Program-made: the position numbers and the translations under genes | The notes under the pieces: generated by a model | The model's input: only the letters and a program-made list of their open reading frames with translations | What the model was told of the DNA's origin: nothing | Databases searched by the model: none | NCBI GenBank assembly: GCA_049642465.1 | Contig: JBAROV010000050.1 | Coordinates: 6,857-70,856, forward strand | DNA: 64,000 nt | Reading direction: 5' to 3' | Source: Vicinamibacterales bacterium | Lineage (GTDB): Bacteria; Acidobacteriota; Vicinamibacteria; Vicinamibacterales; 2-12-FULL-66-21 | Shown here: positions 29,851-52,179 of the stretch, piece after piece | Numbering within the stretch: the first letter of the stretch is position 1 | Layout of the letters: the number at the start of each line of letters is the position of its first letter

Positions 29851-31481
29851 TCAGTGCTGGTTCCGACCTCAGACACTTGCGCGTAGCTTTCGCGCCTGCG
29901 GGGATAATGGGTCTGGCAGGCGCTGCCGCAATCGCGGCGGTGATGTGGATCACCGTCGTTGCGGAAGGTTTCGCCGCGCCTGACGAGTCCTGGTTCCTGC
30001 AGGTCGTGGCTCGCGTCCAGACTGGTCAGACGCTCTATCGAGACGTCCATTTCAATGTGACGCCTCTCTCCGTTTACATCGCGCTCGGTCTCACATCCAT
30101 CTTCCCAACAGAACTCCTGGTGGTCCGATTTCTTGTCGCGGCGGCGCTCGTGTTCACCATAGCCATGTGCTGGATGTTGTGCCGAGTCCTTGGCGTCGGC
30201 CGGCTCGCGCCATGGCTGCTGGTGTGCGCGTGGACTCAACCGACGCCTTACACGCCACTCGCGGTCGTTTTCTTTGCAGCGGCATTCTATGCAACGACGC
30301 TTTGGATGCGAGACGTGCACGAGGTCGGGGCCGCCGCGGACAATCGGAACCTGGCATTTGCGGCCGTGTCTGCCGGTCTCTGCTTCAGCGCCAAGCAGAA
30401 CCTCGGACTGCTCTGTCTGGGCGCCGTGCTCCTCTCGATCCTGATTGTGGCTGGCCGCAGGGCGCCCGCCGTTCGCCACGCGCTGGTCGTTCTGGGCGGC
30501 TTCCTGCTCACCGCGATGGCCGTCATGCTGCCGGTGTTCGTAAGCGGAGCGTTGGATCGCTTCGTGGTCTACGGATTCGGAAAGACTGTCTACGTGCAAA
30601 CGGGAGGCGTTCCCTATAGCGCACCAATCGAACGATTCCTGACTGCCGTCTCAGACGTCTCGAGCGTCGATGCGCTGGCGGCAGCCTATCGCGAGTGTGC
30701 CTTCCTCCTTCCGCCCGTGGTGTTCATGCTCCTCGGAGCGGCCTGCCTGCGTGCTCGTTCGCTCGAGCGCCAGACCGCCCTCGTCGTGACCACGTTCGTT
30801 GCGGCCGGATACCTCGTCGTGTTCCCGGGGCAGGGCGGCTCGGCGATCATGTTTGCCATTCCCATCCTCGTGGTAGGGCTCGCGTTTGGTTGGAGCCGCG
30901 CGCGAGATCTCGTGTCACGCCGGTGGGCATTCACCGTTCAGGCTGCCATCACGGTGCTGTTCTTCGGTCAGATCGGCCTGCGCTTCGTGCGCCACACGAA
31001 CGCGCTGTTGTCGACGGAATACGTCACCTCTGAGATTCCCCATTTTCGGGGCATCAAGGTGCCTGAGGCGACGCACACCCGCATCCACGCCGAGGTGGGA
31101 CTGCTCTCGAGCCTCGCTGCCGGTCAGCCGATGTTCCTGATCGGTCCGAACGCAGGTTTCTATTACCTCGCCGCCAACCTCAGAAACCCGGGCGCCTTCG
31201 ATTTTCCTTACGTCAGCGTGTTCGGCCGCGCGGGCCAGGGGGAAGTGATCGCGCGAATTTTGGCAGATGACATCCGATCGGTGTTCGTCTTTTCAGGCCC
31301 TGTCGATCGCCAGACGCCGCGGGTCTTGCACGAGTTCGTGCGGACGTCGATGCTGCGCGTTCGGGATGAGCCGCTCGGTGTGCTCTATCGTGGGCGGAGG
31401 AATGCCGGCGGGGAGGCGTTGTTTGGGGTGGACGACGGGGTTCGAACCCGCGACTTCCGGAGCCACAGTCGAAAGGAGTGA
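29808..31481 (+). CDS. polytopic membrane protein, GT-C (ArnT/PMT-like) glycosyltransferase candidate
   Basis: At least 10 hydrophobic segments, and it follows a GT2 gene. The last ~20 codons read through the attL repeat, and the stop lies in island DNA. Confidence 0.5.
   Translation: MDAAVPIDPRSPAVISAGSDLRHLRVAFAPAGIMGLAGAAAIAAVMWITVVAEGFAAPDESWFLQVVARVQTGQTLYRDVHFNVTPLSVYIALGLTSIFPTELLVVRFLVAAALVFTIAMCWMLCRVLGVGRLAPWLLVCAWTQPTPYTPLAVVFFAAAFYATTLWMRDVHEVGAAADNRNLAFAAVSAGLCFSAKQNLGLLCLGAVLLSILIVAGRRAPAVRHALVVLGGFLLTAMAVMLPVFVSGALDRFVVYGFGKTVYVQTGGVPYSAPIERFLTAVSDVSSVDALAAAYRECAFLLPPVVFMLLGAACLRARSLERQTALVVTTFVAAGYLVVFPGQGGSAIMFAIPILVVGLAFGWSRARDLVSRRWAFTVQAAITVLFFGQIGLRFVRHTNALLSTEYVTSEIPHFRGIKVPEATHTRIHAEVGLLSSLAAGQPMFLIGPNAGFYYLAANLRNPGAFDFPYVSVFGRAGQGEVIARILADDIRSVFVFSGPVDRQTPRVLHEFVRTSMLRVRDEPLGVLYRGRRNAGGEALFGVDDGVRTRDFRSHSRKE
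31424..31470. repeat. attL: duplicated 3' 47 nt of tRNA-His
   Basis: TGGGGTGGACGACGGGGTTCGAACCCGCGACTTCCGGAGCCACAGTC matches 52104-52150 at 46/47 positions (C31433 vs T52113). Confidence 0.9.
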
Positions 31482-32048
31482 TAACCGAGGCTGTTCGGCC
31501 GAGTTGGATCCTCTCGGTTTTCTTGGCCTCACGTTCCGACCGTTTCCGTTCGTGTCGGCCCGTCTGCGGCGCAGATCACACACAAACCTTGCACAGCGGA
31601 GCGGTCCCGAGCGCCCGGCGCGGGGCACTGCGCCCGTTAGCTTCGGCTCTGATCGTCCAAACCACCTCGGCGTGCGGCCCGTGTCGATAGCGCCGCGGAG
31701 CGGCCGGGCTCTGAGCCACACAGCGCGTTACGGTTTCGTTCGCTTTCGTGGCTTCCGACGTGAGCCTGAGACGCGCGGTGGGGTGGATGCCTGTGAGCGT
31801 AACCGCGCCGCCGAGTGCCGCGCCAGATCCCGCTGCAGTTGACGCGCTTCCGCCTCCAGCGCTCGAAGCCTTGCGCTGATCTCACCCAGCGTCTGCGGCT
31901 TCTTCACAGTCGTGTGCGCCTTTTGAGACAGTGTGCGGGGACGAGTGTGGGAGTTTTAGGGCCGGAAAGCAGGATGGACGCCGAGCTGTGAAAAAAGGCA
32001 ATCCTGCGGCTGGCCGACGCGCGTGTAAACGCCGATAATGGCGCCGAC

Positions 32049-32414
32049 GTGCCGATAGAAGTGACAGCAGCCGATGACGCGGTAACAACCATCACATTCT
32101 CGGATCCTTACACGTTTGACGAGTGGCTCGCCGCAGTATCACCGCTGCTGGCGCACGGACCGACGCTGCGAGCGCTCGTCGATCGGACACGCGCTACCGC
32201 ACCGTCTCGCGAGTTCGTGGATCGGATGGCGAACTTCTTCCAACGGAATGCGGAGCACACGAAGGGTTGGCGCGCGGCCGTCGTGACGGGAACCGACGCG
32301 GGCTACGGCGTCGCGCGGATGCTGCAGTTGACGAACGAAGCGCGCGCCGTACCGATGCAGCTCCGGGCGTTTCGAGATTTTGCGGAGGCGCGGCGCTGGC
32401 TGGCGAGCAGTTGA
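32049..32414 (+). CDS. hypothetical protein
   Basis: 121-aa ORF. Weak resemblance to small STAS-like proteins; not asserted. Confidence 0.35.
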   Translation: MPIEVTAADDAVTTITFSDPYTFDEWLAAVSPLLAHGPTLRALVDRTRATAPSREFVDRMANFFQRNAEHTKGWRAAVVTGTDAGYGVARMLQLTNEARAVPMQLRAFRDFAEARRWLASS

Positions 32415-32574
32415 AGGCGCCCTCTAGTTCAGTCCACCCCAGCGCGCGAGCGCGGCCGGCCTCGATAGGATTTCGAGTGCCGGGATTAGCCGTGCGAGCA
32501 CCTCGAAATCAGGAACGGGATCGCGCAGAGAATCGAATCGGCGGAGATCGGTGTCCACGATTACACCTTCCCTC

Positions 32575-33948
32575 TCAGGTTTTTGTGACCCTTCGCAGCA
32601 GACGACGGTACTGCGGAACAAGCCGGTACACCTGCGATCCGTCCGGGTTCGGCGGCAGTTCCTCGACCACATCGAGGGCCACGAGGTCATCAACAGCCCG
32701 CCGCAGCGAACTTTCAGACGTATTCTTGTGCCGCTTTATGAGGTCATTGACCGTGGCGGTAACACAGTCCGCGAAGTCGCGCACCACGAGCCGGCGGATC
32801 GTGGGCAGCGAGTCGAAGGCGACGCGAGCGACGAGCGTCATATCGGCGGCACTAATTTCCGTTCGCCGTTCGATCACAGCTAAGCCCCGCGCGAGGCCGT
32901 GAAGCTGTTTGACGAATCGACCAGGGCCTTCGGGATCGTCGGGCGTATATTCAAACTGGCGCGTGTATCCGTTGCGCACGACCGCACTACGCGCTCGGGT
33001 GCTGAACTCTGCAATCTCTACGAGCTGCTGTCGAGAGTCTGGTGAGAGGGTCGGATCCACATACGGGAGCGAGTCAAAGAAGAGAGCCACGCGGCCCTTC
33101 AGTTCATCGCGCAGCGGGTCCGCGTTGAGGTTGCTGTCCAGCGCCTGCAAGGCGGAGGCGATCCGATCCGGCTGCTGAAAACGCAGGAGCAGGAATCGCT
33201 GCCCAAGCGCTGACATCACCTCGTAGTGTTTGTCGATCTCGTGGGTCACGCCAGCGACGAGCGTGATCCGGCCCTTCCACTCGAAGCGTTTCCCGCTGCC
33301 GAAGTTCTTCCGGTATTCGCCGTCGTAGATTTCGCGGAGCTGCCCGAGGATCTCTTTGCGTTTTTCACTCCGCATCGAGAGCACGGTCGTGAAGTCCTTC
33401 AGCGACAGTAAGCCGCTGCCGAGTTCGGTCAGCAGGCTTGCGTCTCCGCCGCCGGTCTTGTGCGCCCCCGATGCGAACGTTTTTTCTGTGAGGTCGGAGA
33501 GGGGGTAGACCCCAGCCGTCAGGTTGAGCGTCTGGATCAACTCGGTCTTCGCTCCCGAGGATGGCCCGACGATGAGCAACCAGACGGGCGCACCGGACAG
33601 CCGGTGCGCGGCCACCGCGGCCAGAAGGATCCGAAACGCAGCGCGGTCCTTCATCCGGAGCAAACCATCAATGCTTTTTTCCAAATCTGCCAGGGACGGT
33701 GCAGATTTACTGAGGGATTCTTCGCTTTCCGAGAAATACACTTGCTGATTTTTATTTTTGGTACCCAATGGGGGCTCCGCCCCGTGTTGGGTGTACATCT
33801 CGGAAACTGGAGTTTTTGGGCCAAAACCGGCCCCTTCGGCGGCTGCCGGACTGTTCGGTTTGGTGTTGGTAGCCATCACGCGGCCGCCGCCCAGGCACGA
33901 GAGCGCGACGGCAGCGGGCCGCCCACGCGGTGCTCGCAGGTAATCCAC
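32575..33948 (-). CDS. P-loop NTPase, putative island replication/primase-helicase-associated protein with C-terminal wHTH-like region
   Basis: Walker A-like LLIVGPSSGAKTE and Walker B-like LLSLKDF. Size and position are typical of satellite/island replication genes. Confidence 0.55.
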   Translation of the reverse strand: MDYLRAPRGRPAAVALSCLGGGRVMATNTKPNSPAAAEGAGFGPKTPVSEMYTQHGAEPPLGTKNKNQQVYFSESEESLSKSAPSLADLEKSIDGLLRMKDRAAFRILLAAVAAHRLSGAPVWLLIVGPSSGAKTELIQTLNLTAGVYPLSDLTEKTFASGAHKTGGGDASLLTELGSGLLSLKDFTTVLSMRSEKRKEILGQLREIYDGEYRKNFGSGKRFEWKGRITLVAGVTHEIDKHYEVMSALGQRFLLLRFQQPDRIASALQALDSNLNADPLRDELKGRVALFFDSLPYVDPTLSPDSRQQLVEIAEFSTRARSAVVRNGYTRQFEYTPDDPEGPGRFVKQLHGLARGLAVIERRTEISAADMTLVARVAFDSLPTIRRLVVRDFADCVTATVNDLIKRHKNTSESSLRRAVDDLVALDVVEELPPNPDGSQVYRLVPQYRRLLRRVTKT

Positions 33949-34289
33949 CGAACCTTACAGCGACGGCAGCGACGAAGGTGAAGAGTCACAACTTCACGGT
34001 TTCGGCGGCGGCGAGCCTTACTCAACCGCACCCGGCTCCTGCCACCGCAGAGCGGGCAGCGGCTAGGTTGTTCCATTCGCAGGATTGGAGCCTGCGGTTT
34101 CCGTTGTCGACGACGATAATCGTTGAGCGGCTGCCGCTTCGGCCGCGTCGAGCGGTGTCGGGGTTTGGGCGCGTCGGTCTGGGCGGCCAGTTCGGCCCGC
34201 CGTTGCGCGGCTTTGCGAAAGTAGCGGAGGCCGCTTTGCTGCACCTCGGTCCCGTTCTTGCAAGGTGCGTATAATAGTTTCAGACTCAC
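33876..34289 (-). CDS. basic zinc-ribbon-like protein
   Basis: CPLCGG...CRRCKVRW. True start is possibly the internal MEQPSRC. Overlaps the downstream gene by 73 nt. Confidence 0.3.
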   Translation of the reverse strand: MSLKLLYAPCKNGTEVQQSGLRYFRKAAQRRAELAAQTDAPKPRHRSTRPKRQPLNDYRRRQRKPQAPILRMEQPSRCPLCGGRSRVRLSKARRRRNREVVTLHLRRCRRCKVRWITCEHRVGGPLPSRSRAWAAAA

Positions 34290-34353
34290 TGGAACTCTCC
34301 TTCTAACTGGAAACTCGATGGCCGATCCTGGGCGGGGTCGGCTATCGCCGTTT

Positions 34354-34842
34354 TTACCCAGTCACGTTCGATTTCTCTCCATTCAGTGGTTGGCGTCGGC
34401 GGCGCAGCCGAGCGCGGTCCCGCAGCATCGCGTTCTTCCTCGCTCGACGCTCACGAACGTGTTCGGCGCTGACGTGAACACGCGGCCGTTTGTGAACCGC
34501 GGGCGCAAAGATCCCACGGGCCCTCAGCGCATCGAGTACGAATTTTTCGGCGGCGGAGGCGTCGCTGTTATAGGCGGTCACGATCCATCCATCTGCACGC
34601 TGATACGTTCGGGGCGGAAACAGCGCCCGCACCTGCGACCGCAGACCAGGGTCGGGTTCTGTTCCGTTGCCGAGCCACGCGGTGCGCAACAATTCCTCGC
34701 GCGTCTTGATCGCTGAAGCGATGAGAGCTGCCAATTGGGGTTGCCGCTTCGTGACGTCGATATACCTCGCGAGCGCGGCCGAGGGACGCGGCGGGCGCGG
34801 TTTCGTGTGCGAGCGGAAGAAACGGCCGGCAGTCACGGTCAC
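34354..34842 (-). CDS. hypothetical protein
   Basis: 162-aa ORF with a 4-nt overlap with the upstream HTH gene. Confidence 0.4.
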   Translation of the reverse strand: MTVTAGRFFRSHTKPRPPRPSAALARYIDVTKRQPQLAALIASAIKTREELLRTAWLGNGTEPDPGLRSQVRALFPPRTYQRADGWIVTAYNSDASAAEKFVLDALRARGIFAPAVHKRPRVHVSAEHVRERRARKNAMLRDRARLRRRRQPLNGEKSNVTG

Positions 34843-35138
34843 GCCTCGCGTCCCGTGGCCGCTCGGTAGCGCGCGAACCGATCGCTCGCGTGCGCCGAAA
34901 CTGAAGCCTTTGGCGTCGTCGGTTCTATCGTGGCCGTGAACGCCGAGATGCCCACGAGGACGTCGAGCGACACGCCCAAGTACTGAGCGATCTGCGTCGC
35001 GCGCTCCCGACTGATAGGCCGCCGGCCGCTTTCAACCAAACTGATGAACGCTGTGGACGTTCCGATCAGGTCAGCGAGTGCGGCCTGTGGCACGTTCAGC
35101 CAGCGACGCACGCGGCGAAGGTTTGGGATCGTAAGCAA
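34839..35138 (-). CDS. XRE-family HTH transcriptional regulator
   Basis: LNVPQAALADLIGTSTAFISLVESGRRPIS. Confidence 0.75.
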   Translation of the reverse strand: MLTIPNLRRVRRWLNVPQAALADLIGTSTAFISLVESGRRPISRERATQIAQYLGVSLDVLVGISAFTATIEPTTPKASVSAHASDRFARYRAATGREA

Positions 35139-35337
35139 AGTTCCCCCTTACGAATTCGTGACGATTGAGTTGGTGTTACGAGTCCAGGGTGACGTTTCGA
35201 AGCCCGGACTCGGTCAGGAACGGCAGGAGGTTCGTGGCGCGGTTAGAAGGTGCAGGCTGTGAAGGCTTTGAGAATTACCGACCCTGTTAAACAATTCCAC
35301 TGCATGTGTCATGCCAAAGTAATTGTGGATAGAGCCG

Positions 35338-36093
35338 CTAGGCTGCTGGAGCCGCCGGCACCGCGTTCGCTGCGACGGTCGGCTGCGTCGGCTGGTCCGC
35401 CGAATGCGACGGCCGATACTCCACACTGACGCGGGAGTCGCGGTAGAAGCCAAACGCGACGGCGAGCTGCGAGGAGGGCGGCCGCAGGCCGGAGATCACT
35501 TCGGCCACTCTCCACCGCGGTACCTTGGCGAGTCGACTGAGCGCGTACTGGCTACCGGCGCGGTCCACCTCGTGAGCAACCACTGCTTTCATCTGTTCCG
35601 GCGTGAGCGTCATGATTCGGCCATCGAAGATCGCGTTCACCGGGACGCCGAGAATCTGTGCGGCCATCTCGACACGGGCGGCGGATTCGGGTCTGAGGCT
35701 CTGGTAGCGGAGGACACGACGATCGGTGCGCTGAAACCCTAGCGCGCGAGCAAGCGCCGCAGACACGCGACGTCTACCGACGATAGCGTCAGAGATCGCA
35801 ACCTGAGGAGTCTTCAGCAACCGCGCCAGGGCTTGCTGGCCGTGCGCTTCGGCGACCCGATCAATCAACCAAACCCTCATCCAGGCGTTATCAAAAAACC
35901 CGGCCTGGGCAAACGCGCGTTGGTAGTCCTCAATCGCGAGCGGCGCGTGTTGGCTTCGTTTCCGCCTCATGACGTTCTTTCTCCTGCGACGGTTCTTCGT
36001 TTTCGGTGGACGGGATGAGGATGCTCGCTGTAGGTGCGACTGAAAGTAGCGGCGCGTGCGGGGAGCCGCTGGCGCTGGGCCTGATGCCGTCAT
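35338..36093 (-). CDS. hypothetical protein with two copies of an HTH-like module
   Basis: ALARLLKTPQVAISDAIVGRRRVSAALARALGF and ALSRLAKVPRWRVAEVISGLRPPSSQLAVAFGF. Confidence 0.45.
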   Translation of the reverse strand: MTASGPAPAAPRTRRYFQSHLQRASSSRPPKTKNRRRRKNVMRRKRSQHAPLAIEDYQRAFAQAGFFDNAWMRVWLIDRVAEAHGQQALARLLKTPQVAISDAIVGRRRVSAALARALGFQRTDRRVLRYQSLRPESAARVEMAAQILGVPVNAIFDGRIMTLTPEQMKAVVAHEVDRAGSQYALSRLAKVPRWRVAEVISGLRPPSSQLAVAFGFYRDSRVSVEYRPSHSADQPTQPTVAANAVPAAPAA

Positions 36094-36389
36094 CGCGGGC
36101 GGCGGCGAAACCGCACCTTGCGAGGTTCGACGAACCGATCAAAGCCGAGCGCGAGGGCCACGGATTTGCTTACGGGTCGCAGTCCATTTATGGCCATCGA
36201 CAGTTCGCGCTGCGACAGGCCGAAGCGGAGCGCCATTTGGCGTTGACCACCGTACATCTGTACGGTGTTCATCAAGTGAATACGCATCGCGTTTGCGTCG
36301 AGGACGAGAGGGGACGTTGTATCTGGCATTCGGACCGAACCCACGGCTTTCTGCGCCTCACATCCACGTATGTAGATGAGGCGATACAT
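36090..36389 (-). CDS. small protein with a third copy of the same HTH-like module
   Basis: MALRFGLSQRELSMAINGLRPVSKSVALALGF. 4-nt overlap with the downstream gene. Confidence 0.45.
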   Translation of the reverse strand: MYRLIYIRGCEAQKAVGSVRMPDTTSPLVLDANAMRIHLMNTVQMYGGQRQMALRFGLSQRELSMAINGLRPVSKSVALALGFDRFVEPRKVRFRRRPR

Positions 36390-36711
36390 CTAGTGTATAG
36401 CACCTGCGAGGTTGATTGAGTCGCGTCGAACCAACGCAGTCTCCGTCGTCGGGTTGACCGCTAGCGTGCGACTCGCCGCGAACGCCCTTACCACCAAAGC
36501 AATAGACGACATTTGGAGCGCGTAGGGCGGCAGAGGAATCGGTGCCGAGCGTGTCGAGCCTGCTCCCCAATCGAAGGACATGATTCAGAACCCCCTTCAC
36601 TTGGAACCTGCTGCTGCGAGGCTACTAGTCGGCCTTCCAGCGGACTTTCTCAGCCGTATACGTAGACTTCTGGCGAGAGGCCCGCGTAACTACTGACCCG
36701 CGCGCGGCCCG

Positions 36712-37344
36712 ATGTTTGCCAGCGCCGCACCGGGAGGTGTGTCCGTGCGTCTGTTTCGCTGGACCCTTGGAGCGTGGCTGCTGCTGGGTGCGGCGCCAGT
36801 TCAAGCCAATGTCACGACGTTTCCTCCACCCGGCGCGTTCTACGATGTGATGGGCTCCTTTACCGCGTGGAACGAAGACGCGGCGATCTGGTTGCCAGAC
36901 GTAATGGCACACCCTGACTTCATTGGTACGACCTTCATCGAACCGGGTTCGGGGCAAGTCGCGCGCGTGAGTCTCTTCACCGCCGACTACAACTTTATTG
37001 GTGGCGGAACAAAAGCGACGAACGCTGATGGCAGTTGGTGGATCAATCAGATGTACCACGGCGTCGTGGGCTCGTCGATCGTCTTCTACAACTTTCACTT
37101 CGTCATGAACGCCGAGGGTACCGGCGGAATTGTGAGCTGGTTGGGGTACACCCCGGGTGAATGGATCTCTGAAGGCAACACGACACGGCCGCCGGGCTTG
37201 TTGTCGGTCAGCGGAACATTCACGGTCGTTACCGAGCCAACATCGATAGCTTCGTTCGGGTTCGGGCTCGCGGTCCTGGCTCTCGCGACACGTCGACGAC
37301 CCAGGCTGGCACTTCTTGTTAGGACGCCTCCGCTGCGCACCTAG
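36712..37344 (+). CDS. secreted protein with PEP-CTERM-like (TEP variant) C-terminal anchor
   Basis: Signal WTLGAWLLLGAAPVQA and C-terminal VTEPTSIASFGFGLAVLALATRRRP. Confidence 0.55.
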   Translation: MFASAAPGGVSVRLFRWTLGAWLLLGAAPVQANVTTFPPPGAFYDVMGSFTAWNEDAAIWLPDVMAHPDFIGTTFIEPGSGQVARVSLFTADYNFIGGGTKATNADGSWWINQMYHGVVGSSIVFYNFHFVMNAEGTGGIVSWLGYTPGEWISEGNTTRPPGLLSVSGTFTVVTEPTSIASFGFGLAVLALATRRRPRLALLVRTPPLRT

Positions 37345-38048: not shown

Positions 38049-38269
38049 ATGTCACCTGCTCGAATCATGTCCACCTCCGTACGGCAACTGATAGCCGCGG
38101 GGATCGATGTGCCAACATCTTCAGCGCCGACCCCAGACCCCGTCACAAAGGCAATCGCCATATCATTTCCTCTCACCATCTAACGCACTTCCCGAATTCT
38201 TCGGTACCTAAGTCCTCGAACGACCAGCGCCCGGTTGGACGCTTCCACTCAGTGAATCCCACCGCACAC

Positions 38270-39039: not shown

Positions 39040-39055
39040 ATACGCTCCTGTTGTT

Positions 39056-42288: not shown

Positions 42289-42453
42289 GGGAAGGGTCGC
42301 GCAACTCGCGGTTCCGCTTATGCAGCGCACCGCGGACGGGGTTTGAGTGGGCCAATGTCGCCGCGTAGGCCGGCGTTGTACCGGAATCACTCGCTTGCTG
42401 AAGGCAGAGTTAACCTCACACCCTCCGAAGCGTCAATCGGATCGCGCGCCGGT

Positions 42454-44181: not shown

Positions 44182-44270
44182 TACGCACAGGCGTGCGGGT
44201 TTTATGAGGACAGCGTCTTGCGGACACTCACCAGAATGCGATCGACCGAATTTCTGGAAAGGAGCCGGTC

Positions 44271-44756
44271 ATGAAGCGAATGCTCGCCGTCGGGCTCATC
44301 GTGTCGTTCATCGTGGCGGAAGCGCGCCTATTCGCTGTCGATTCGAACAAGGCTCAGTACATGGGTGGCACCGTCGCCGGCCTGAAAGAAAAGGCGCAGG
44401 GTAGGTTCTCGACTTCGGCTGAGGACGCAATTACGTTCACCCCCGACGGAAAGAAGTCCGTGCCCGTGTCGATCCCTTACGCGGCCATCACCGAGTTGGA
44501 GTACGGCCAGAAGGCGGGTCGGCGTGTCGCCGTCGGCATCCTCGTCTCACCGTGGGCCCTCTTTTCCAAGAAGCGCAACCACTACCTGACGATCAGCTAC
44601 AAAGACGCAGCGGGCAAAGAACAGGCCGCAGTGTTCGAGCTGGGAAAAGACATCGTGCGTACGACCGTGAAGATCCTCGAAACGCGGTCGGGCAAGGATG
44701 TTCAGTACCAGGACGATGAGGCGCGCAAGTCGCTCGGTGGCGGAAAGGGGAAGTAG
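44271..44756 (+). CDS. secreted hypothetical protein
   Basis: Signal MKRMLAVGLIVSFIVAEA, with GGAG upstream. Confidence 0.5.
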   Translation: MKRMLAVGLIVSFIVAEARLFAVDSNKAQYMGGTVAGLKEKAQGRFSTSAEDAITFTPDGKKSVPVSIPYAAITELEYGQKAGRRVAVGILVSPWALFSKKRNHYLTISYKDAAGKEQAAVFELGKDIVRTTVKILETRSGKDVQYQDDEARKSLGGGKGK

Positions 44757-44810
44757 CCGCAGGGGATCGGTTGACCTCACTAGCGAAACGAACAGCGCAG
44801 GAGGGGCCTC

Positions 44811-45344
44811 ATGATGCGGTTTACAGGTTCGGTCGGAGCGATCGTAGTACTAACGTGGGCCACCCTTTCGATTCTGCGTGGAGATGGACAGCTACCAAGC
44901 GACTTCGAGACGTGCGCGTCCGAAATTGACGATCTTCAAGGCAACGCAGACGAAGCCCATTCGGCCGCCGAGGAGGCAGCGTCGGCGAAAGACGAACTGG
45001 AAGATGCAGCTTCGGCAGCTCGCTCGCGGTGTTCGTCTTATGGCGAGTCGAATTACCTATGTGAATCCGCGCGGCGCCTGGCGAGAGATGCAAAAAACGA
45101 GTTCGAGTCCGCGGCGGACACATTTCTAAGCGCGTACGGTGAGTTGACGTCCAGCATTCGATCCGTCCAATTGGCCTGTGGAGTTCGTACGCCGATTGCT
45201 GGGATTCCTGATCATAAACAGGGATTGTGCCGAGCCGTCAGGAACTTGGGCAATGTCTTCTCAGGCTCGTTAACACCCGCCATGCGCGAACAGTTTTGTA
45301 AGGGCCTCACGGCGGCGGAGTGCTCTACCTGCCTCTCCCGGTGA
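44811..45344 (+). CDS. secreted/membrane-anchored Cys-containing hypothetical protein
   Basis: Hydrophobic N-terminus, an acidic helical region and 8 Cys. Confidence 0.45.
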   Translation: MMRFTGSVGAIVVLTWATLSILRGDGQLPSDFETCASEIDDLQGNADEAHSAAEEAASAKDELEDAASAARSRCSSYGESNYLCESARRLARDAKNEFESAADTFLSAYGELTSSIRSVQLACGVRTPIAGIPDHKQGLCRAVRNLGNVFSGSLTPAMREQFCKGLTAAECSTCLSR

Positions 45345-45350
45345 TATTGA

Positions 45351-45602
45351 CTGGACGTTCTTCAGCGTCTCCGTCTCACTTGGAACGGCGATCCGAAGGA
45401 ACTCGGCGACCTGTTCCGCCTGCGAAAGAATCGCCGGCAGGCACGCGCGGCCCTCTACTCGCACCAATTCGGCTGGGAAGTGCGTCTGCTGGTCGGTGCG
45501 CAACCTGAGACTGTGCAGTCCCGCGTGTGTCGGTCGCAGGAGGAAGTGTTGTGGACGGGCGAAGAGTGGAAGGCAGCGATGATTGAGAAGGGGTGGCGGT
45601 GA
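45351..45602 (+). other. 83-codon open frame without canonical start
   Basis: Ends ...FGWEVRLLVGAQPETVQSRVCRSQEEVLWTGEEWKAAMIEKGWR. Protein-like, but there is no ATG/GTG/TTG until near the end. It begins right after the stop of 44811-45344. Confidence 0.3.
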
Positions 45603-45651
45603 CACGCCTTCGGCGTACGCCAGTCTTTCTCTCTCCAGGTTTGGCATCATT

Positions 45652-46101
45652 GTGAGTCTGCTTCTCCTGCTTCGCCATCACGGGCCTCCATATCATCTGT
45701 CGTTGCTCGATGTCGCCGAAAGCCTGGTAACGGACCAGCGCAATGCGGAGATCGTCGTAGTGACAGCACAGATGGCCTGCGAAATCCAAATCGAGCTCGC
45801 ATTCGCCAAGGTGATGGCTGCACGCAGTCTTGGCGACGTGGTGGCAAAGTCCATCCTCGACTTGCTACCGAGTCGGAATATTGCGAATGAAAGGGTGCGG
45901 CGGCTCTATACAGCACTCAGTGGCGACAGCATCCAGCATCAAGCATTTTGGCCCGCCTACGTCGAACTCTCGCGTCTGCGCAATCGAGTGATTCACAGCG
46001 GCGCTCGCGCGACGCTTCAGGAAGCGCGGGCGGCCATCGAGGCTGCGCGCGAACTCACGAGCCACGTCAGCGCTTTGTTGGCGCGCCCGGAATGGCGTTG
46101 A
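45652..46101 (+). CDS. HEPN-like (RNxxxH motif) protein
   Basis: All-helical sequence with YVELSRLRNRVIHSGARAT. Start is uncertain (TTG 45583, GTG 45652 or ATG 45772). Confidence 0.45.
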   Translation: MSLLLLLRHHGPPYHLSLLDVAESLVTDQRNAEIVVVTAQMACEIQIELAFAKVMAARSLGDVVAKSILDLLPSRNIANERVRRLYTALSGDSIQHQAFWPAYVELSRLRNRVIHSGARATLQEARAAIEAARELTSHVSALLARPEWR

Positions 46102-46136
46102 GCAGCCCAGGCGCACCGGCCGCTTTACGTCGCATT

Positions 46137-46889
46137 TCAGGCTTGAGCTGTTTTGCTGAACCCAGTCTTCTCACAATGATCGAAGAACTCGATCGCGTGA
46201 AAGTATTTCGACTCGGCGCCGGCCGGTACTGGCTGTGTGCCGAGAACGCCGAGGAGAGTGGCCCGAGCGCGCACGGCGTCCTTCTGGTGGGTGAGATAGA
46301 GCGTCTTGGGCCAGTTGACGGCCTTCAGGTGCATCCTGCTCTTGTCTTTAAGGGGAACGTTGTAATCGAGCAGGACGTGATCGAGCGCCTCGGGTTTTTC
46401 GCACAGCAGGGATCGTACAAAGACTGTGGCCTGGGGTGTGGTGTGGATCCCGATCCAATCGGCGCGCGTATACCAAGCCGCAGCGTCGCTGATCGCTGGC
46501 CCCATGACGGTGTTTGTTTGTTCATCCGCTCTGTAGAGTTCGCCGATTGCAAGCGCACCGCGAAAGAAGATGCGCTGCCTCAAGAAGTACGCCTCGACTG
46601 TCCGTAAGAGCCCGCAGAAGCCGTTGATGTCGTCGGTATTCAAAGGCTCGCGACGCACGTACGTCAGTACTACGGTATCGCTAAAGATAAATCGCATGAG
46701 GCCGCTTTTGTCGATCCGGAAACTGGCGGTGGTAGCGGTTTCGTTCAGCAGCTTCATCACCTGATCGCGCGCCTGGAGGAATCGATCTGCCTCTTCACGC
46801 GAGTAGACGGCTGCGCCTAGTGCGTCGAGAACCGCTACCACACCCTGAACGGGCTCGGCGGGGGAACCGACCGACGTGTTGGCGGGCAT
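46137..46889 (-). CDS. class III nucleotidyl-cyclase-fold (palm) protein
   Basis: VVAVLDALGAAVYS ... RFIFSDTVVLTY ... FFRGALAIGELY...VMGPAISDAAAWYTRADWIGIHTTP follows the metal-Asp / second-Asp / RxGxxxG...G..vn.Aar order of cyclase homology domains. Confidence 0.55.
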   Translation of the reverse strand: MPANTSVGSPAEPVQGVVAVLDALGAAVYSREEADRFLQARDQVMKLLNETATTASFRIDKSGLMRFIFSDTVVLTYVRREPLNTDDINGFCGLLRTVEAYFLRQRIFFRGALAIGELYRADEQTNTVMGPAISDAAAWYTRADWIGIHTTPQATVFVRSLLCEKPEALDHVLLDYNVPLKDKSRMHLKAVNWPKTLYLTHQKDAVRARATLLGVLGTQPVPAGAESKYFHAIEFFDHCEKTGFSKTAQA

Positions 46890-47048
46890 GCGCCAGCATT
46901 TTACAGTGCGGTTTGGATCCTGAGACCATCGCCCTCTCGGCCGCTTAAAACCTAACGGCCAATGCCTGCACCCCTGCAAACTTGCAGGGATCAAATTTTC
47001 ACCCCTGCAACTCGCGCACGCGAACGGTTGCTCGATTACGATGCGGGC

Positions 47049-47600
47049 ATGCCGGAAGTCACACTCACGCGCAAGGAACTCTACACGCTCGTCTGGTCGG
47101 AGTCGCTATTCAAACTCTCGAAGCGCTTCGACCTATCCGACGTCGGCCTGCGAAAGCTCTGCGAACGGCACCGCGTGCCCGTACCGTGGCGGGGTTATTG
47201 GGCGCAGAAGGCCGCTAGCCAGCGTGTCTTTCCTGCGCCACTCATTGACGCTCCAGGATTGCGCGATCAGAAGATCGTTCTTCAAGAACGTCAACCGAAC
47301 GCTGCCGCCGCCGAATCGGCACCGTTGCCGCCGGAGATCGCCTTTGAGCGCGATCCTGCGAACCTCATCGTCGTAGAAGGCCAGAAGCCGATTGCTCACC
47401 CGCTCGTTCGCCGGAGAGCCGAAGAATTCCGCCGGAGCGACGCGGCTTCAGATCGCGACGTGTTCTACAAAGGGCGGCGGTGCATCAGCATTGGTGTGTC
47501 GCGCTGCCTACGTTCGCGTGCACTCCGAATCTTTGAGGCCCTCATATATGCCCTCGAAGCTCGCGGCTATGCCATTGCTGTGAACGACGCACGCGCGTGA
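47049..47600 (+). CDS. conserved-hypothetical N-terminal half
   Basis: ELYTLVWSESLFKLSKRFDLSDVGLRKLCERHRVPVPWRGYWAQK is an N-terminal module I have seen in island-borne hypotheticals. Confidence 0.5.
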   Translation: MPEVTLTRKELYTLVWSESLFKLSKRFDLSDVGLRKLCERHRVPVPWRGYWAQKAASQRVFPAPLIDAPGLRDQKIVLQERQPNAAAAESAPLPPEIAFERDPANLIVVEGQKPIAHPLVRRRAEEFRRSDAASDRDVFYKGRRCISIGVSRCLRSRALRIFEALIYALEARGYAIAVNDARA

Positions 47601-48436
47601 CCGTCCTTGGTCAGGCGGTCAAAATTCATTTGGGAGAGCTAGCCCGTCGCGTACCTGCTGAGCCCAAAAAGTACAGCACCAGACGTTACAAGACTGAGCT
47701 GACAGGTCGGCTCGGCCTCTTTGTCGACTCTTGGAGCGGGTTGCGTCCCGCCGCAACCGACGGGAAGGCGCAGCGACTAGAAACCCGCCTGAATCATTTC
47801 ATTGAATCGATCGTACGCCGTGCGCTGGTGCTCAACGCGAGGGACGCTGAACTGGCGCGCCGGCATGACCTGAGGCAGCAAGAGGCAAAGCGCCGCACCG
47901 ACGCGAACAACCGGACCTACATCGAGGCGGGCCGCCACGATCACTTTGACAAGCTGGTCGACTATTGGGTTCGTGCGCGAGAGCGGAGGGCGTTCCTGGC
48001 ACGGCTTCGTGAGGTCGCGGGCGAGGTGACGCCGGAATCCGAAATCGGCTGCTGGCTTGCGTGGGCCGAAGGCTTCGCTCGTGCCCCCGATCCACTCGCT
48101 CGTTTCTCCGAACGTGGCAAGACTCTGAAGGTTTATTACTACGATCCAGGGTTTGGGTTGGTCGCCAAGCGCATCGAGGGTTTTACCGACCCTCATCCAA
48201 CACCGGATCAGAAACGCGGTGCACTGATCGGCATCACGCTGACCAGTGCGCCCCCGGACAACTTCGAACACGCGATCGAGTTTGAACTTGCCCTGGATGA
48301 CATATTGCCGTACGAGACTACAGAACCGGGTTGGGTTCCACGTCTGTTTGTGGTGCCAGCGCGCGTACTGAACGCTGCGCTCGTGATCGGTTCGACGAAG
48401 TCAGATGCCGGCGGTGCTGCTGTAGTTGGAGCCTGA
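47597..48436 (+). CDS. conserved-hypothetical C-terminal half (GTGA overlap with previous ORF; possibly one frameshifted gene)
   Basis: GTG 47597 overlaps TGA 47598-47600. The sequence continues seamlessly (TVLGQAVKIHLGE). Confidence 0.5.
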   Translation: MTVLGQAVKIHLGELARRVPAEPKKYSTRRYKTELTGRLGLFVDSWSGLRPAATDGKAQRLETRLNHFIESIVRRALVLNARDAELARRHDLRQQEAKRRTDANNRTYIEAGRHDHFDKLVDYWVRARERRAFLARLREVAGEVTPESEIGCWLAWAEGFARAPDPLARFSERGKTLKVYYYDPGFGLVAKRIEGFTDPHPTPDQKRGALIGITLTSAPPDNFEHAIEFELALDDILPYETTEPGWVPRLFVVPARVLNAALVIGSTKSDAGGAAVVGA

Positions 48437-48978
48437 CTGCGTGATCATGCACGCGCAGTGATAGCAAGAACTGTATCAGGCTTGAGAAATTTTCATATAG
48501 CTGGGAGAAACCCCACACGACCGGGCGCTAAAGGTCGGGGGATCCGTAAAAGGGCGAACCGGGGGGGGTACGTGCGGACGGCAGGATCCCTGCGGCCGCG
48601 CGGATTGCCCGCGAAACGTGCGAGGAGCGGTTAGGAGCTGCGCGGAGCTGAGGGGCTGGCCGAGGTGAGGTAGGGAAAAGAAGAGGGCAGCATTGTCAGC
48701 CTGCCCCTGTCTGGCGGGAACGTCGCGCGCGTGCGCGCGTTACGTTGTTGCTGCCGGGATACGCTGCCGTGACGCGAATGAGAGCAGGATGCTGCGGGAC
48801 TCAGTTCGATTGATAGTAACCAGGCGCGCACCGGAGGCGTGCACGCGGACAACGCGGGTGTGCTGGCGAGGCGTCGGCCGGTTGCGGTTGATCATCGGAA
48901 CGTCCTTTCTGACTTGTTTGGCATGGAAGAGGGTGCCGGGGGAACGTGTGTGCGGCGCTCCCCCGGCTGTAGGCGGGT

Positions 48979-49178
48979 TTACCGGGAGCGAGTCGGGATC
49001 GGGAGGTATCCGAGCGCGGTCAGCTCCGCGCGAAGCGGAGTCAGCAGAAACGATGCCGGGAGTTTCGAGACGATCGACGCGGTCAACGCGAGCGTGCTAT
49101 CGGCGCGCAGGAACGCGCGCGCAGCAACGGACTCGGGAACCGGAACGGAGAGGTTGAACGCCCATCGCGGAGTTGCCA
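48979..49178 (-). CDS. 66-aa ORF driven by island promoter P1
   Basis: ATG 49178 lies about 80 nt downstream of TTGACA-N17-TATATT. A GC-rich stem-loop follows the stop. A further 51-codon ORF (48740-48895, minus) follows with AAAGGA upstream. Confidence 0.3.
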
Positions 49179-49267
49179 TTGTCAGCCTGCCTTTCGTGTG
49201 GGTTGAGTGTGTTGGGACGTGTGAACATTGGGTGCGTGTATTGCCGACGGCAATATTTGCTGATGGC

Positions 49268-49296
49268 AATATAGGTCCGTGCGTCCGTTGTGTCAA
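49268..49296 (-). promoter_or_regulatory. island promoter P1: TTGACA-N17-TATATT
   Basis: Minus strand has TTGACA (49296-49291), a 17-nt spacer and TATATT (49273-49268). Flanked by three 13-bp palindromes TTGC[C/T]GA[C/T]GGCAA at 49241-53, 49257-69 and 49307-19. Confidence 0.6.
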
Positions 49297-49658
49297 GCGG
49301 AAAGCATTGCTGACGGCAAACTATATTTTTGCCGCAGGAGTCTCAATCAGTAGGTATCTGGCGTCTCATTTGCAGGGTTCTTCTGGTTTGGCAGTCGCAT
49401 CCTTCAACAGTCCGGACGATGGGCGTAGCGGTCAACGGTCGCGGCCGAATGCGGCGGACGTGTGTCCGCGCTCAGTCGCCGGAGTCTGCTCGGCCCCTCG
49501 CGAGCAGGAACGCAGGCGGGGGACCGGGACCGGGATTACGGTGTTCAGGTGCGACTCGCGGCCAGTGCGCGCAACGGTTCAACTCGTTTGCGCGAGCACG
49601 AAGGATCCCCGGCCGGCGGGGCGGGCGGTCGCGAACGGTGTCGAGCAGAAGAGGAAAC

Positions 49659-50078
49659 GTGCGTAGGGCTGCGCTCGCTGCGTTGCTCGCACTGATGGTC
49701 GCCTGTGGCGGATCGCCCACGCGGCCAACGCAATCGGGACCGCCGCCGGGCGCTCCGCGTGCGCGCCTCGTTGCCGTACCGGATCAGCAGCTCGCGTTCC
49801 CTGATTGGCCGTGTCCTACCGGCGAGTGCCGCTACGGCTTTGACTTCCGCAATGAGGGGCCGGACTGCGCGACGAGGATTGCCGGCACGCTGAAGGTATT
49901 CAACGCGGACCAGACGACACAACTTGCGATGGATGAGTGGACGATCGATCCGACGAAACGTGTGCAGCCGCAGGAGACGGTGCGCGTGGAGGACGGGCCG
50001 CTGCCGTTCAGTGTCCTATCAGGCTTGGATGGGCGCTTTACGGTGGCGTTCGAGTTTGACGCCGTGCGGTGCTTGTAA
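49659..50078 (+). CDS. small lipoprotein
   Basis: GTG 49659 follows AGAGGA. VRRAALAALLALMVACGG carries a lipobox. Confidence 0.5.
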   Translation: MRRAALAALLALMVACGGSPTRPTQSGPPPGAPRARLVAVPDQQLAFPDWPCPTGECRYGFDFRNEGPDCATRIAGTLKVFNADQTTQLAMDEWTIDPTKRVQPQETVRVEDGPLPFSVLSGLDGRFTVAFEFDAVRCL

Positions 50079-50201
50079 GCTATCCGTCACCAGCCCGGAT
50101 CACAATTCTCTCCGCGCGGCTGGCACACCTCGTGCTGGGTAGCCCCTAAACGCACGGACGCAACCGTACAGCGCCCGCGCCGAACCCGGAAGGATCGAGG
50201 A

Positions 50202-50444
50202 ATGACACCAGACCACACATCTGCGGCGGCGGCGGAGCCCGCGCGCGTGCCGTCGCCTTGGCTCACGGTGGCCGCGGCAGCCGACTACGCGGCCGTTTCG
50301 ACTGACACCATTTACTTCGCGTGCGGGCGCGGCGAGCTGCGGCACGTGCGCGTGGGAGGCCGGCGGAGCATTCGGCTGCGGGCGGAGTGGATCGACGCGT
50401 GGCTGGAGCGTGGAGCGAACAGGGAAGCGAAGCGTCTGCAGTGA
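50202..50444 (+). CDS. xis: excisionase-family (MerR-like HTH) DNA-binding protein
   Basis: LTVAAAADYAAVSTDTIYFACGRGELRHVRVGGRRSIRLRAEWIDAWL. Confidence 0.7.
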   Translation: MTPDHTSAAAAEPARVPSPWLTVAAAADYAAVSTDTIYFACGRGELRHVRVGGRRSIRLRAEWIDAWLERGANREAKRLQ

Positions 50445-50475
50445 GCAACGCCCCCACGAAACGTCTGAGCGGCCG

Positions 50476-50504
50476 TTGACAACCGTGGCCGTGGATCCTA
50501 TATT
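50476..50504 (+). promoter_or_regulatory. island promoter P2: TTGACA-N17-TATATT
   Basis: TTGACA 50476-81, 17-nt spacer, TATATT 50499-504. Followed by TATATTGCCGTCGG TATATTGCCGTAAGG, which shares TATATTGCC with P1. Confidence 0.6.
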
Positions 50505-50543
50505 GCCGTCGGTATATTGCCGTAAGGTGGGTAAACGCGCCGC

Positions 50544-50780
50544 ATGAGAACGAAACGCCCGAAGGGCCAGCGACCGGAGTTGGCGACAGCGGCCGAAGCG
50601 TGGAAGCGCCGCCGGACGAACCTCGGACTGACGCAGGCCGAGTTGGCCGAACTCCTCGGGGTCAAATGGAACACGGTGGCGCGCTACGAGACGGCGCAGC
50701 ACGAGATCCCTGAGATGGCGATCAGGTTGTTGGGTTATATCGAGCGGGACGCGCGCGAGAAGCGCCGGAAGGAGCGGTAA
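50544..50780 (+). CDS. XRE-family HTH regulator
   Basis: LGLTQAELAELLGVKWNTVARYETAQHEIP. Confidence 0.7.
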   Translation: MRTKRPKGQRPELATAAEAWKRRRTNLGLTQAELAELLGVKWNTVARYETAQHEIPEMAIRLLGYIERDAREKRRKER

Positions 50781-51015
50781 GGGTACGGGCCTGCACAAGC
50801 GCTGCGAGCACAAGGCCCGCGCGCGCGATCGCTGCGCGCACCCGTGGCACGGGTCGTTCCAGCACCGCGGCACGCTGCACCGGGTCAGCCTCGGCAAGTG
50901 GGCCAATGAGGACATCACGTCCAAGGCCCAGGCGCAGGCGATTTATGAGCGGTTTCGGGCCGCCGTCCGCGCCGGGCGTTTCACGCGGGAGCGGGAGGAG
51001 CCGGCGGCTGCTGGG

Positions 51016-52167
51016 ATGACCTTCAATGCACTCGCGGATCTCTACGTCGAGCGGTACATCGAACCCAACCGGCTCAGTTCGGCGGACACGATCGGGAGTC
51101 GGCTAGCGCCGCTACGAGCACACTTCGGCACGCGACCGATCGCCGACATTCGCACAGCAGACGTGGAGGATTTCATCGCGACGTTGAAGGCGCCTGCGCT
51201 GCTGGCTCCGCACCATAAGACGCCGCGCATTCGACGACCGGCAACGATCAACCGATACCTGTCGCTGCTGCGGCATATGTTCAATTGGGCGGTGGGACGG
51301 GAGTACCTGGAGCGCACCCCGTTCCGGCGCGGCAACGCGACGCTCATCAGGCAGGAGCCGGAGGACAACCGCCGGCACCGCCGCATCCGTCCCGAGGAAG
51401 AGCGCGCCCTGATCGACGCGTCGGCGCCGCACCTGAAGCTGTTGATCATCACGGCCCTCGATACGGGCATGCGACGCGGCGAAATGCTCGCCCTGACGTG
51501 GAGCGACATTGACGCGCGACCCGGCTGGATTCGGCTGAGAGGGGAGACGACGAAGTCGGGGAAAACCCGGTGGGTGCCGATCTCGACGGTGCGCCTGCAG
51601 GCGGTGCTTAACTTCCTACGGCTGGACGCCGCCGGAAAGCGGAAGCCTGGGAATGCGCCAGTGTTCAGTAACGCCGCCGGGGAGCCGATCCGGTACTACC
51701 AGACCGCCTTCCGCGCGGCCGTGCTGCGAGCGCACGGCGTCGAGCCTAGGCGCGCCGGAGAGAAGGGTGCGCGGCGCGTCGGCCGGCTCCGTGAGGACTG
51801 CCGGGAAGCGCTGCGGCGGATCGACCTCCGCTGGCACGATCTTCGGCACGAGTACGCTTCGCGGCTAGCCGAGCGCGGCACCCCGCTGTCGCAGATCCGC
51901 GACCTCCTCGGGCACCACTCGATCGTGACGACGGAGCGGTATGACACGCAGACCTCCGAGGCGCTGATGACGGCTGTAAAGCGCCTCGACACTGGCGAAA
52001 CCTTCACACCGCCTTCACAAAACGCCAACGAGGACCTAGCAACGGTCGCCGTGCACACCAATGAGACGAGCTGCAACTTGTCGGAGGAGAGTGAGTTGGG
52101 GAGTGGGGTGGATGACGGGGTTCGAACCCGCGACTTCCGGAGCCACAGTCCGGCGCTCTACCGCTGA
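51016..52167 (+). CDS. int: tyrosine recombinase / phage integrase (an in-frame N-terminal arm-binding-like region extends upstream to ~50770 without a canonical start)
   Basis: TGMRRGEMLALTW, WHDLRHEYASRL and LLGHHSIVTTERY. The 3' end reads through attR/tRNA-His. Confidence 0.85.
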   Translation: MTFNALADLYVERYIEPNRLSSADTIGSRLAPLRAHFGTRPIADIRTADVEDFIATLKAPALLAPHHKTPRIRRPATINRYLSLLRHMFNWAVGREYLERTPFRRGNATLIRQEPEDNRRHRRIRPEEERALIDASAPHLKLLIITALDTGMRRGEMLALTWSDIDARPGWIRLRGETTKSGKTRWVPISTVRLQAVLNFLRLDAAGKRKPGNAPVFSNAAGEPIRYYQTAFRAAVLRAHGVEPRRAGEKGARRVGRLREDCREALRRIDLRWHDLRHEYASRLAERGTPLSQIRDLLGHHSIVTTERYDTQTSEALMTAVKRLDTGETFTPPSQNANEDLATVAVHTNETSCNLSEESELGSGVDDGVRTRDFRSHSPALYR

Positions 52168-52179
52168 GCTACACCCACC
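52104..52179 (-). tRNA. tRNA-His (anticodon GTG) with G-1 and encoded CCA; its 3' 47 nt form attR
   Basis: Minus strand GGTGGGTGTAGCTCAGCGGTAGAGCGCCGGACTGTGGCTCCGGAAGTCGCGGGTTCGAACCCCGTCATCCACCCCA. Anticodon loop is CTGTGGC. Confidence 0.9.

Follow-up and report, generated by a model that had tools for sequence, protein, structure and literature searches.

The 64,000-nucleotide stretch of contig JBAROV010000050.1 from a Vicinamibacterales bacterium (hereafter the window, at its full length) very probably contains a 20.6-kb genomic island, bounded by direct repeats, that arose by integrase-mediated insertion into a tRNA-His gene. A preliminary description, made from the letters of the window alone, had proposed an integrative island of about 20.7 kb in tRNA-His with 47-bp repeats at its ends. 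This proposal is borne out by the repeats themselves, by a recombination module next to the intact tRNA gene, and by relatives in which the same chromosomal site is polymorphic. The coordinates of the island, its attachment (att) sites, its recombination genes and the chromosomal landmarks on either side are collected in Table 1.

Table 1. Features of the tRNA-His island and its surroundings (positions in the window; ORF, open reading frame; HTH, helix-turn-helix; nt, nucleotides; aa, amino acids).
Feature	Position	Strand	Basis or remark
Ku (non-homologous end joining), conserved left chromosomal landmark	24675..25535	plus	TIGR02772
Six-gene glycosylation operon: methyltransferase, HpcH, epimerase, GT2, methyltransferase, GT-C	25749..31423	plus	Between Ku and left att
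GT-C-like membrane glycosyltransferase	29808..31481	plus	Homologues carry PF13231; likely true start ~29919
Integrase-distal att copy	31424..31470		Displaced 3′ 47 nt of tRNA-His, CCA end to anticodon stem
Island body, 20,633 bp	31471..52103		Mostly orphan ORFs and several XRE-type HTH regulators
Two overlapping ORFs, 212 and 279 aa, unknown function	46962..48436	plus	46-49% identity to L053 gene
Excisionase-family DNA-binding protein	50202..50444	plus	HTH_17 (PF12728), TIGR01764
Sigma-70-like promoter TTGACA-17-TATATT and two TATATTGCCGT repeats	50476..50520	plus	11/12 matches
XRE-family HTH regulator	50544..50780	plus	Pfam scan; kept in L053 and L135
Tyrosine integrase, ~460 codons	50785..52167	plus	PF00589, homologue alignment, motifs
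Integrase-proximal att core	52104..52150		Inside intact tRNA-His
Intact tRNA-His(GTG), encoded CCA and G-1	52104..52179	minus	ARAGORN, Rfam
GGDEF diguanylate cyclase, conserved right flank	52305..53288	minus	Adjoins tRNA-His in all examined relatives where the tRNA was found

Direct repeats derived from tRNA-His

ARAGORN called tRNA-His(gtg) at 52104-52178 on the minus strand, and the Rfam tRNA model scored 68.5 bits at 52107-52178, its only match between positions 25000 and 53500. The G-1 typical of tRNA-His is supplied by C52179 of the plus strand. As had been described, the 3′ 47 nt of this gene recur at 31424-31470 with a single mismatch (46/47 identical; C31433 versus T52113). The block of identity extends from the encoded CCA to the anticodon loop and takes in two more bases of the 5′ strand of the anticodon stem. 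With three mismatches allowed, the window contains exactly two occurrences of the 32-nt core pattern, against none in 100 dinucleotide-preserving shuffles; a chance repeat is thus ruled out, and there is no third copy. The left copy diverges right after ...CCACAGTC and continues with GAAAGGAG... rather than with an anticodon stem and D-arm, so that it is a fragment and not a second tRNA gene. Neither ARAGORN nor Rfam gave a call there, which likewise excludes a second complete tRNA around the left copy.

In the tRNA sense the mismatch reads as A67 to G67 and turns the acceptor pair T6:A67 into T6:G67, in agreement with the change from T:A to T:G given in the preliminary description. There, the mismatch had also served to identify the left copy as the displaced original end and the right copy as element-derived. 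The topology of the locus points to the same assignment, but the mismatch lends it no support. Because the tRNA of integrase-free relatives equals the intact gene of the window (L124, 76/76) and the displaced fragment in the relative L001 also carries T at this position, the mismatch is no marker of host versus element. C31433 is best read as a substitution that arose in the non-functional displaced fragment after integration, not as a difference between element and host.

The recombination module

The genes just inside the intact tRNA had been named as an integrase, an excisionase and an HTH gene, and each of these calls was confirmed (PF00589, TIGR01764 and XRE, respectively). Toward the tRNA on the plus strand, the module runs in the order excisionase, promoter, XRE regulator, integrase, att. 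The integrase matches PF00589 with E = 7.8e-24, its catalytic motifs RRGEM, HDLRH, LGH and ERY are readable, and its structure matches are XerC, XerD and XerA. It consists of an N-terminal Cys/His-rich domain (GLHKRCEHKARARDRCAHPWHGS...), for which no Pfam match was obtained, followed by a core-binding domain, a catalytic domain, a linker of ~40 residues and a tail of ~21 residues that is read antisense through the tRNA. An exact-protein look-up returned no record of this integrase in other assemblies.

The excisionase-family protein scores 39.3 bits against the TIGR01764 cutoff of 28.8, which places it among the recombination directionality factors, and its gene is kept in the related islands of L053 (72% identity) and L135 (57%). 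The promoter-like TTGACA-17-TATATT itself lies at 50476-50504, upstream of the XRE-integrase pair, and the two direct TATATTGCCGT repeats that overlap it may be a candidate operator. Since the XRE stop codon stands only 4 nt before the integrase frame, the two genes are probably co-transcribed.

Relatives and the interval between Ku and tRNA-His

The closest relative, L001, comes from forest soil and encodes P0001. It is ~90% identical to the window over 28141-31475 and 52104-54841, and its order is GT-C, tRNA-His 3′ fragment, 3.8-kb insert, intact tRNA-His, GGDEF. Its insert and the island of the window have no content in common. The left fragment in L001 has decayed further, differing at three internal positions and at two on the inner edge, and the only trace of an integrase is one doubtful fragment (E = 0.037). 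In L053, L054 and L135 the integrases are 79%, 72% and 58% identical to that of the window, and each ends inside tRNA-His beside a GGDEF orthologue. L053 and L135 also carry excisionase and XRE genes; the remaining cargo differs, except for one backbone gene in L053. The integrase of L054 lacks the N-terminal Cys/His part, only 16-20 nt of its left att are left, and no excisionase or XRE gene was detected in this relative.

A metagenome scan with the GGDEF protein gave 80 soil and rhizosphere contigs with orthologues 71-92% identical, most of them with tRNA-His just downstream. Among these, only the short contig L127 holds more of this integrase than the tRNA-encoded tail; in L116, a distant (36%) integrase lies ~8 kb from the tRNA. 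Ku is the next conserved gene wherever enough sequence follows the tRNA. The distance from Ku to tRNA-His is 54 nt in L069, 315 in L066, 350 in L116, 380 in L124, 420 in L125 and 983 in L067, and 2.2-3.4 kb in six further contigs. Five contigs with an identical tRNA have mutually unrelated sequence in this interval. Because both the size and the content of the interval vary so widely among relatives, we regard it as an integration hot spot, ranging from ~50 nt to the 26.6 kb of the window.

Two outcomes bear on how the island had first been described. Relatives carrying the same 20 kb with no repeat-bounded polymorphism would have spoken against integration, and the site proved polymorphic in L001, L053, L054, L135 and the contigs in which Ku adjoins the tRNA. 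An empty site had been expected as a GT-C gene directly abutting tRNA-His. Five contigs do have Ku 54-420 nt from tRNA-His and no integrase, but a GT-C-tRNA-His site was not found among the relatives. This gene order would be expected only for the immediate ancestor common to L001 and the window. A search of species genomes with the GT-C protein gave no relative, the alignment query reached at most 38% identity and was of no use for locating an empty site, and an exact look-up of the GGDEF protein returned only one 1.7-kb contig, which ends before the tRNA.

Many GGDEF contigs (L055, L056, L072, L092, L093, L104, L107 and L052) end within tRNA-His or a few nucleotides beyond it, which is the usual behaviour of assemblers at a site that is polymorphic within a population. 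Further to the left, many soil relatives show synteny with the stretch from ~21.5 to 25.6 kb, in which Ku and a 683-aa ORF (22502-24553) lie, and two adjacent tRNA-Arg genes (ccg, tcg) lie at 21413-21646 on the minus strand.

A model of integration and the points against it

We propose that a circular element, with an attP core corresponding to the last 47 nt of tRNA-His, would have recombined with the chromosomal tRNA-His via its tyrosine integrase. On this model, the tRNA 3′ half brought in by the element now completes the gene (52104-52179), and the original 3′ half was displaced by 20.68 kb, to 31424-31470. The crossover presumably took place within or close to the anticodon loop, the usual position in this class. 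For excision, the integrase and the excisionase-family protein would both be required, and GT-C-tRNA-His would be restored. The predicted attP junction (segments separated by slashes) is ...GAGTGAGTTGGGGAG / TGGGGTGGATGACGGGGTTCGAACCCGCGACTTCCGGAGCCACAGTC / GAAAGGAGTGATAACCGAGG..., and the predicted repaired attB is ...GGGGAGGCGTTGTT / TGGGGTGGA(C/T)GACGGGG...CCACAGTC / CCGGCGCTCTACCGCTGAGC...

A number of observations weigh against this model. No circular junction and no exact empty GT-C-tRNA-His site were found, and L001, the sole close relative, is occupied too. The relatives in which Ku stands next to the tRNA are only 73-78% identical in the GGDEF protein and have no GT-C operon at the site. 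No transfer, replication or packaging functions were recognised among the scanned island ORFs. Finally, the integrase frame contains no ATG, GTG or TTG before 51016, and the ATG of its homologues is ACG here, so the full-length integrase may not be made.

The last point concerns the present state of the element. In a mechanical ORF list, the integrase extends over 51016-52167 (383 aa), from the first canonical start, ATG at 51016. Its homologues are 430-470 aa long and begin with MGLYKxCxHxGRARDRCxHxWWGS. From 50788 on, the frame of the window's integrase encodes this N-terminal domain without interruption, with 80% identity to the homologue P0072, and ACG stands at 50785-50787 where all full-length homologues have ATG. 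The frame also has a CTG at 50791, two codons downstream of the ACG, and the XRE stop codon 4 nt upstream. The ACG, in which T instead of C at 50786 would give ATG, could be a lost start codon, a site of non-canonical or coupled initiation, or a base-calling error. With ACG where the homologues have ATG, present-day mobility is uncertain, and the element may have been crippled recently.

A possible reading, which we hold with some reserve, is that the island integrated as proposed and is now unable to excise and decaying in place, having lost the integrase start and, if translation begins at M51016, the N-terminal domain as well. The ACG codon with no alternative canonical in-frame start would fit this course of events, as would the substitution in the displaced att copy and the backbone gene, which L053 has as one ORF and the window as two in different frames. 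Decay of a similar kind is seen in relatives, namely the N-terminal deletion and the 16-20 nt left att of L054, and the integrase fragment (E = 0.037) and five att differences of L001. However, the 459 remaining integrase codons are open and 79% identical to P0072, the catalytic motifs are intact, and the att copies still agree at 46 of 47 positions. Coupled or non-canonical initiation is conceivable, given the CTG at 50791 and the upstream stop codon 4 nt before the frame, and the ACG could be a single-base assembly error.

Cargo and element type

The GC content of the island is slightly lower than that of the flanks (0.62-0.65) and falls to 0.58-0.61 in the 41-47 kb stretch. About 30 island ORFs were scanned against Pfam, 20 against PHROGs and the 10 largest against PADLOC, and NCBIfam and PDB sequences were searched as well. 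Pfam gave HTH regulators and otherwise only weak matches, the PDB sequence searches gave nothing, and none of the 10 largest ORFs matched PADLOC, so the island does not classify as a defence island. In PHROGs, the ORFs at 40019-40573 (6.9e-12) and 46137-46994 (3.9e-6) match two families of unknown function.

These two matches, and an order of excisionase, repressor-like XRE gene, integrase and att that resembles lambda, might suggest a temperate prophage or phage satellite at tRNA-His. We consider this highly improbable. No capsid, terminase, portal, tail or lysis family was found among the 20 ORFs compared with PHROGs or the about 30 compared with Pfam, and on present evidence the prophage reading is rejected for want of detected structural genes. 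The closest IMG/VR integrase is only 39% identical, versus 79% in chromosomal and metagenomic relatives, and 20.6 kb is small for a tailed phage.

An integrative conjugative or mobilisable element (ICE or IME, or one resembling the ICEs of actinomycetes, AICEs) is improbable too. Its layout would be familiar, as attP immediately downstream of the integrase, accompanied by an excisionase and an XRE regulator, is the arrangement reported for actinomycete ICEs (PMC2440964), and AAA_25 ATPase genes occur in the islands related to it in L053 and L135. Yet Pfam and NCBIfam gave no relaxase, coupling protein, FtsK/Tra-like translocase, type IV secretion, replication or Nudix match in the island, a negative that counts weakly, as most ORFs are orphans and may hide remote homologues. 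Taken together, these results suggest an integrative genomic island with no recognised means of transfer, which is probably non-autonomous or in any case cannot be recognised as a phage or a conjugative element.

The two overlapping ORFs at 46962-48436 are the only island genes besides the recombination module that the L053 island has in common with that of the window. They lie in two frames with a 4-nt overlap, and their L053 counterpart (6239-7528) is a single 429-aa gene; the two-ORF state may be either a frameshift or a genuine split. Other large orphan ORFs lie at 32575-33948 and 41035-42288. The related island of L135 carries a methylase/ResIII restriction-like pair.

A few other ORFs deserve mention. 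The 352-aa ORF at 42454-43512 (minus strand) matches the XopAX type III effector family in NCBIfam with E = 8e-18, far below the family cutoff, and faintly DUF4365. At the integrase-distal end, the ORF at 32049-32414 (plus strand) is weakly SpoIIAA/STAS-like (E = 5.6e-4) and 39% identical to a gene adjoining tRNA-His in L103; a SpoIIE/anti-sigma-like gene lies on the other side of the island, at 53395-54432. The ORF at 36712-37344 (plus strand) has a weak PEP-CTERM sorting motif, and the L135 island also encodes a PEP-CTERM protein (6839-7120).

Reading frames through the att core

Both the integrase and the GT-C-like ORF cross a copy of the repeat and have the peptide GVDDGVRTRDFRSHS in common, as the preliminary description had noted. 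This peptide reads as the antisense translation of the att core. The integrase ends in ...ELGSGVDDGVRTRDFRSHSPALYR (...SHSPALYR) and the GT-C-like ORF in ...EALFGVDDGVRTRDFRSHSRKE (...SHSRKE). The integrase ORF enters the tRNA antisense for ~64 nt (52104-52167), where the D-loop provides its TGA stop. Some 55 codons separate the core from the catalytic Tyr upstream of it (in the motif ERY, at about residue 309 of the 383-aa ORF). The exchange affects only the integrase codons after ...SHS, that is, the last 3 to 5 residues (SRKE versus SPALYR), and on the excised circle the integrase would end in ...SHSRKE* in place of ...SHSPALYR*. No degradation-tag-like motif is evident in the tails ...SPALYR and ...SRKE.

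The tail of the GT-C-like protein is a different matter. Neither Pfam nor NCBIfam matched the ORF itself; the label rests on its homologues, which carry PF13231 and the source name arabinose-transferase-like glycosyltransferase. The conserved body ends in ...GVLYR near 31390, and ~30 further codons cross the displaced tRNA fragment. In an alignment of 14 homologues, all but the closest end within ~20 residues of ...GVLYR, and the long tRNA-derived tail occurs only in P0001 (94% identical). Since no other homologue has it, the tail is taken to be non-conserved read-through in a GC-rich frame that lacks a stop, with no evident functional weight. The earlier statement that integration replaced the last codons of the GT-C gene thus stands by topology (SPALYR* to SRKE*), but the codons concerned belong to this read-through, which no homologue other than the closest has.

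Of the 120 best-matching integrase homologues, 27 terminate in ...GVxxGxRTRDxRSHSPxLYx, a translation of antisense tRNA-His; about 30 others have variants of ...WLGGRDSNPDNVVQSHVSYR at their ends, and smaller groups end in ...GGPPGDRTRDTVIKSHVLYH or ...WYRYGDSNPG..AENHVS. The P0141 gene overlaps tRNA-Gln(ctg) by 63 nt (L216, 4345-4407) and the P0178 gene overlaps tRNA-Glu(ctc) by 57 nt (L217, 4333-4389); the L135 integrase likewise ends in tRNA-His (11308-11371). Members of this integrase family often end 57-64 nt inside their target tRNA gene, in antisense. The frame was identical in the three cases checked, such that the anticodon's complement is translated as the cognate codon (His, Gln and Glu). 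As the frame is fixed relative to the anticodon in these three cases, the tail peptide predicts the target tRNA.

In an alignment of 13 integrases, the segment from the catalytic Tyr to the stop contains no gaps, although ~30 of its residues are variable. The motif CCTTCACA is present twice, 11 bp apart, at 52001-52019 in the 3′ coding region of the integrase, some 95 nt away from the att core. Four aligned elements (the window, L053, L054 and L135) have a TTCA(C/A) pair at equal spacing despite changes in the surrounding amino acids, and we regard these motifs as candidate arm-type integrase sites. The conserved linker length and the motif pair would fit an integrase gene whose 3′ end doubles as an attP arm; constraint at the protein level is also possible. 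When k-mers common to both att arms were considered as arm-type sites, only weak 8-9-mers such as CGGAGCGG were found, and these are not convincing.

The integrases belong to a large, apparently undescribed soil-bacterial family of roughly 900 members with a Cys/His-rich N-terminus. It is conceivable, if unlikely, that in this family the overlap of tail and tRNA is functional and the last ~100 nt of the integrase gene serve as an attP arm. Were the overlap functional, integration and excision would switch the C-terminus of the integrase and its 3′ untranslated region (...SHSRKE* versus ...SHSPALYR*), and control of the integrase would depend on the state of the element, comparable to lambda sib retroregulation or mycobacteriophage integration-dependent immunity. 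A shallow literature search for integrase ORFs that end inside tRNA genes gave related concepts and no description of the pattern.

The glycosylation operon beside the island

The six-gene operon that ends with the GT-C gene lies in the variable interval between Ku and tRNA-His and, as far as its sequence indicates, is not bounded by repeats. It is present in L001 from ~28141 onward, as far as that contig reaches, and absent from the site in the contigs of all other relatives that extend beyond the tRNA. Homology with the relatives in which Ku stands next to the tRNA stops at 25748, so that the operon (25749-31423) is accessory relative to them. It also occurs in other genomic contexts in L002, L004 and L005, where there is no tRNA-His and the downstream genes are different; these loci are accordingly uninformative as empty sites.

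We tentatively raise the possibility, which would add to the integration model and which we do not favour, that the 26.4 kb from 25749 to 52103 represent two or more successive insertions at tRNA-His. The operon would then be the remnant of an older island without its integrase and outer att, and the 20.6-kb element would be the latest arrival. The breakpoint at 25748, where in relatives Ku lies 54-420 nt from the tRNA, is consistent with such an array, as are the unrelated contexts of the six-gene operon in L002, L004 and L005 and the unrelated content of the interval in many relatives. On the other hand, no significant att remnant was found at the left edge of the operon, where even the best local alignments to the tRNA do not rise above background. 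About 55 nt at 25748-25805 are loosely colinear with antisense tRNA-His (TGGGG..ACGAC..TCCGCGAC..GTC..GCGTTCTCGCGC), an alignment without significance, its score being reached by 38% of random segments. The operon contains no piece of an integrase and its GC content is that of the flanks; an ordinary rearrangement, or an old acquisition specific to the lineage, would account for it just as well. An older island remnant and an ordinary rearrangement are both possible origins of the operon, and the insertion of the 20.6-kb island itself is the same in either case.

Discussion

The layout is that of tRNA-gene islands and prophages whose lambda-type tyrosine integrases lie in the 'opposite convergent' integrase-tRNA arrangement (PMC2951348). 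As in these, the integrase stands beside the intact tRNA, the element supplies the 3′ half of the tRNA and the displaced fragment forms the far repeat, the block of identity runs from the anticodon region to the CCA, and an excisionase-family factor is encoded upstream. Unlike in these, the integrase ORF runs ~64 nt antisense into the tRNA with no stop before att, the Cys/His-rich N-terminal domain of the integrase has no Pfam match, and the cargo is unrecognisable. In the actinomycete ICEs pSAM2, SLP1 and pMEA300, attP is located directly downstream of the integrase, together with an excisionase and a regulator (PMC2440964). The island differs from them in that no Rep, Tra (FtsK-like) or Nudix genes were found in it, and its host is apparently no actinomycete but an uncultured soil bacterium whose nearest named matches are Acidobacteriota.

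The split integrases of the archaeal SSV type carry attP inside the integrase gene and target tRNA genes, and integration splits and inactivates the gene. The element of the window resembles them in having att within the reading frame of the integrase and a tRNA gene as its target. It differs in that the catalytic domain is untouched and only terminal codons are exchanged, so it is not a split-gene system.

In mycobacteriophages of clusters G, N and P, the repressor ORF crosses the attP core, and integration removes a degradation tag (PMC9262239). By analogy, this integration-dependent immunity appears to be the nearest documented precedent for an ORF that crosses a tRNA-type att core, since there, too, the ORF runs through a core that is a tRNA 3′ end and its C-terminus changes on integration. 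In the window, by contrast, the ORF concerned is the integrase, the att core lies outside the XRE gene and the module includes an excisionase, and the system does not belong to that class.

In summary, the island is an ordinary, textbook tRNA-targeted mobile island of a well-known type, and taken alone it matters mainly as correct annotation: 20.6 kb of the contig, arguably 26.4 kb, are accessory DNA. The region formed by Ku, tRNA-His and GGDEF stands out as an integration hot spot in a widespread uncultured soil lineage. The att sequences and the compact module of excisionase, XRE regulator and integrase are a possible integration tool for such bacteria, and a tail peptide that reveals the target tRNA could guide the prediction of att sites. 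In addition, the pattern of the integrase tails raises the question of whether control of the integrase differs between the integrated and the excised state.

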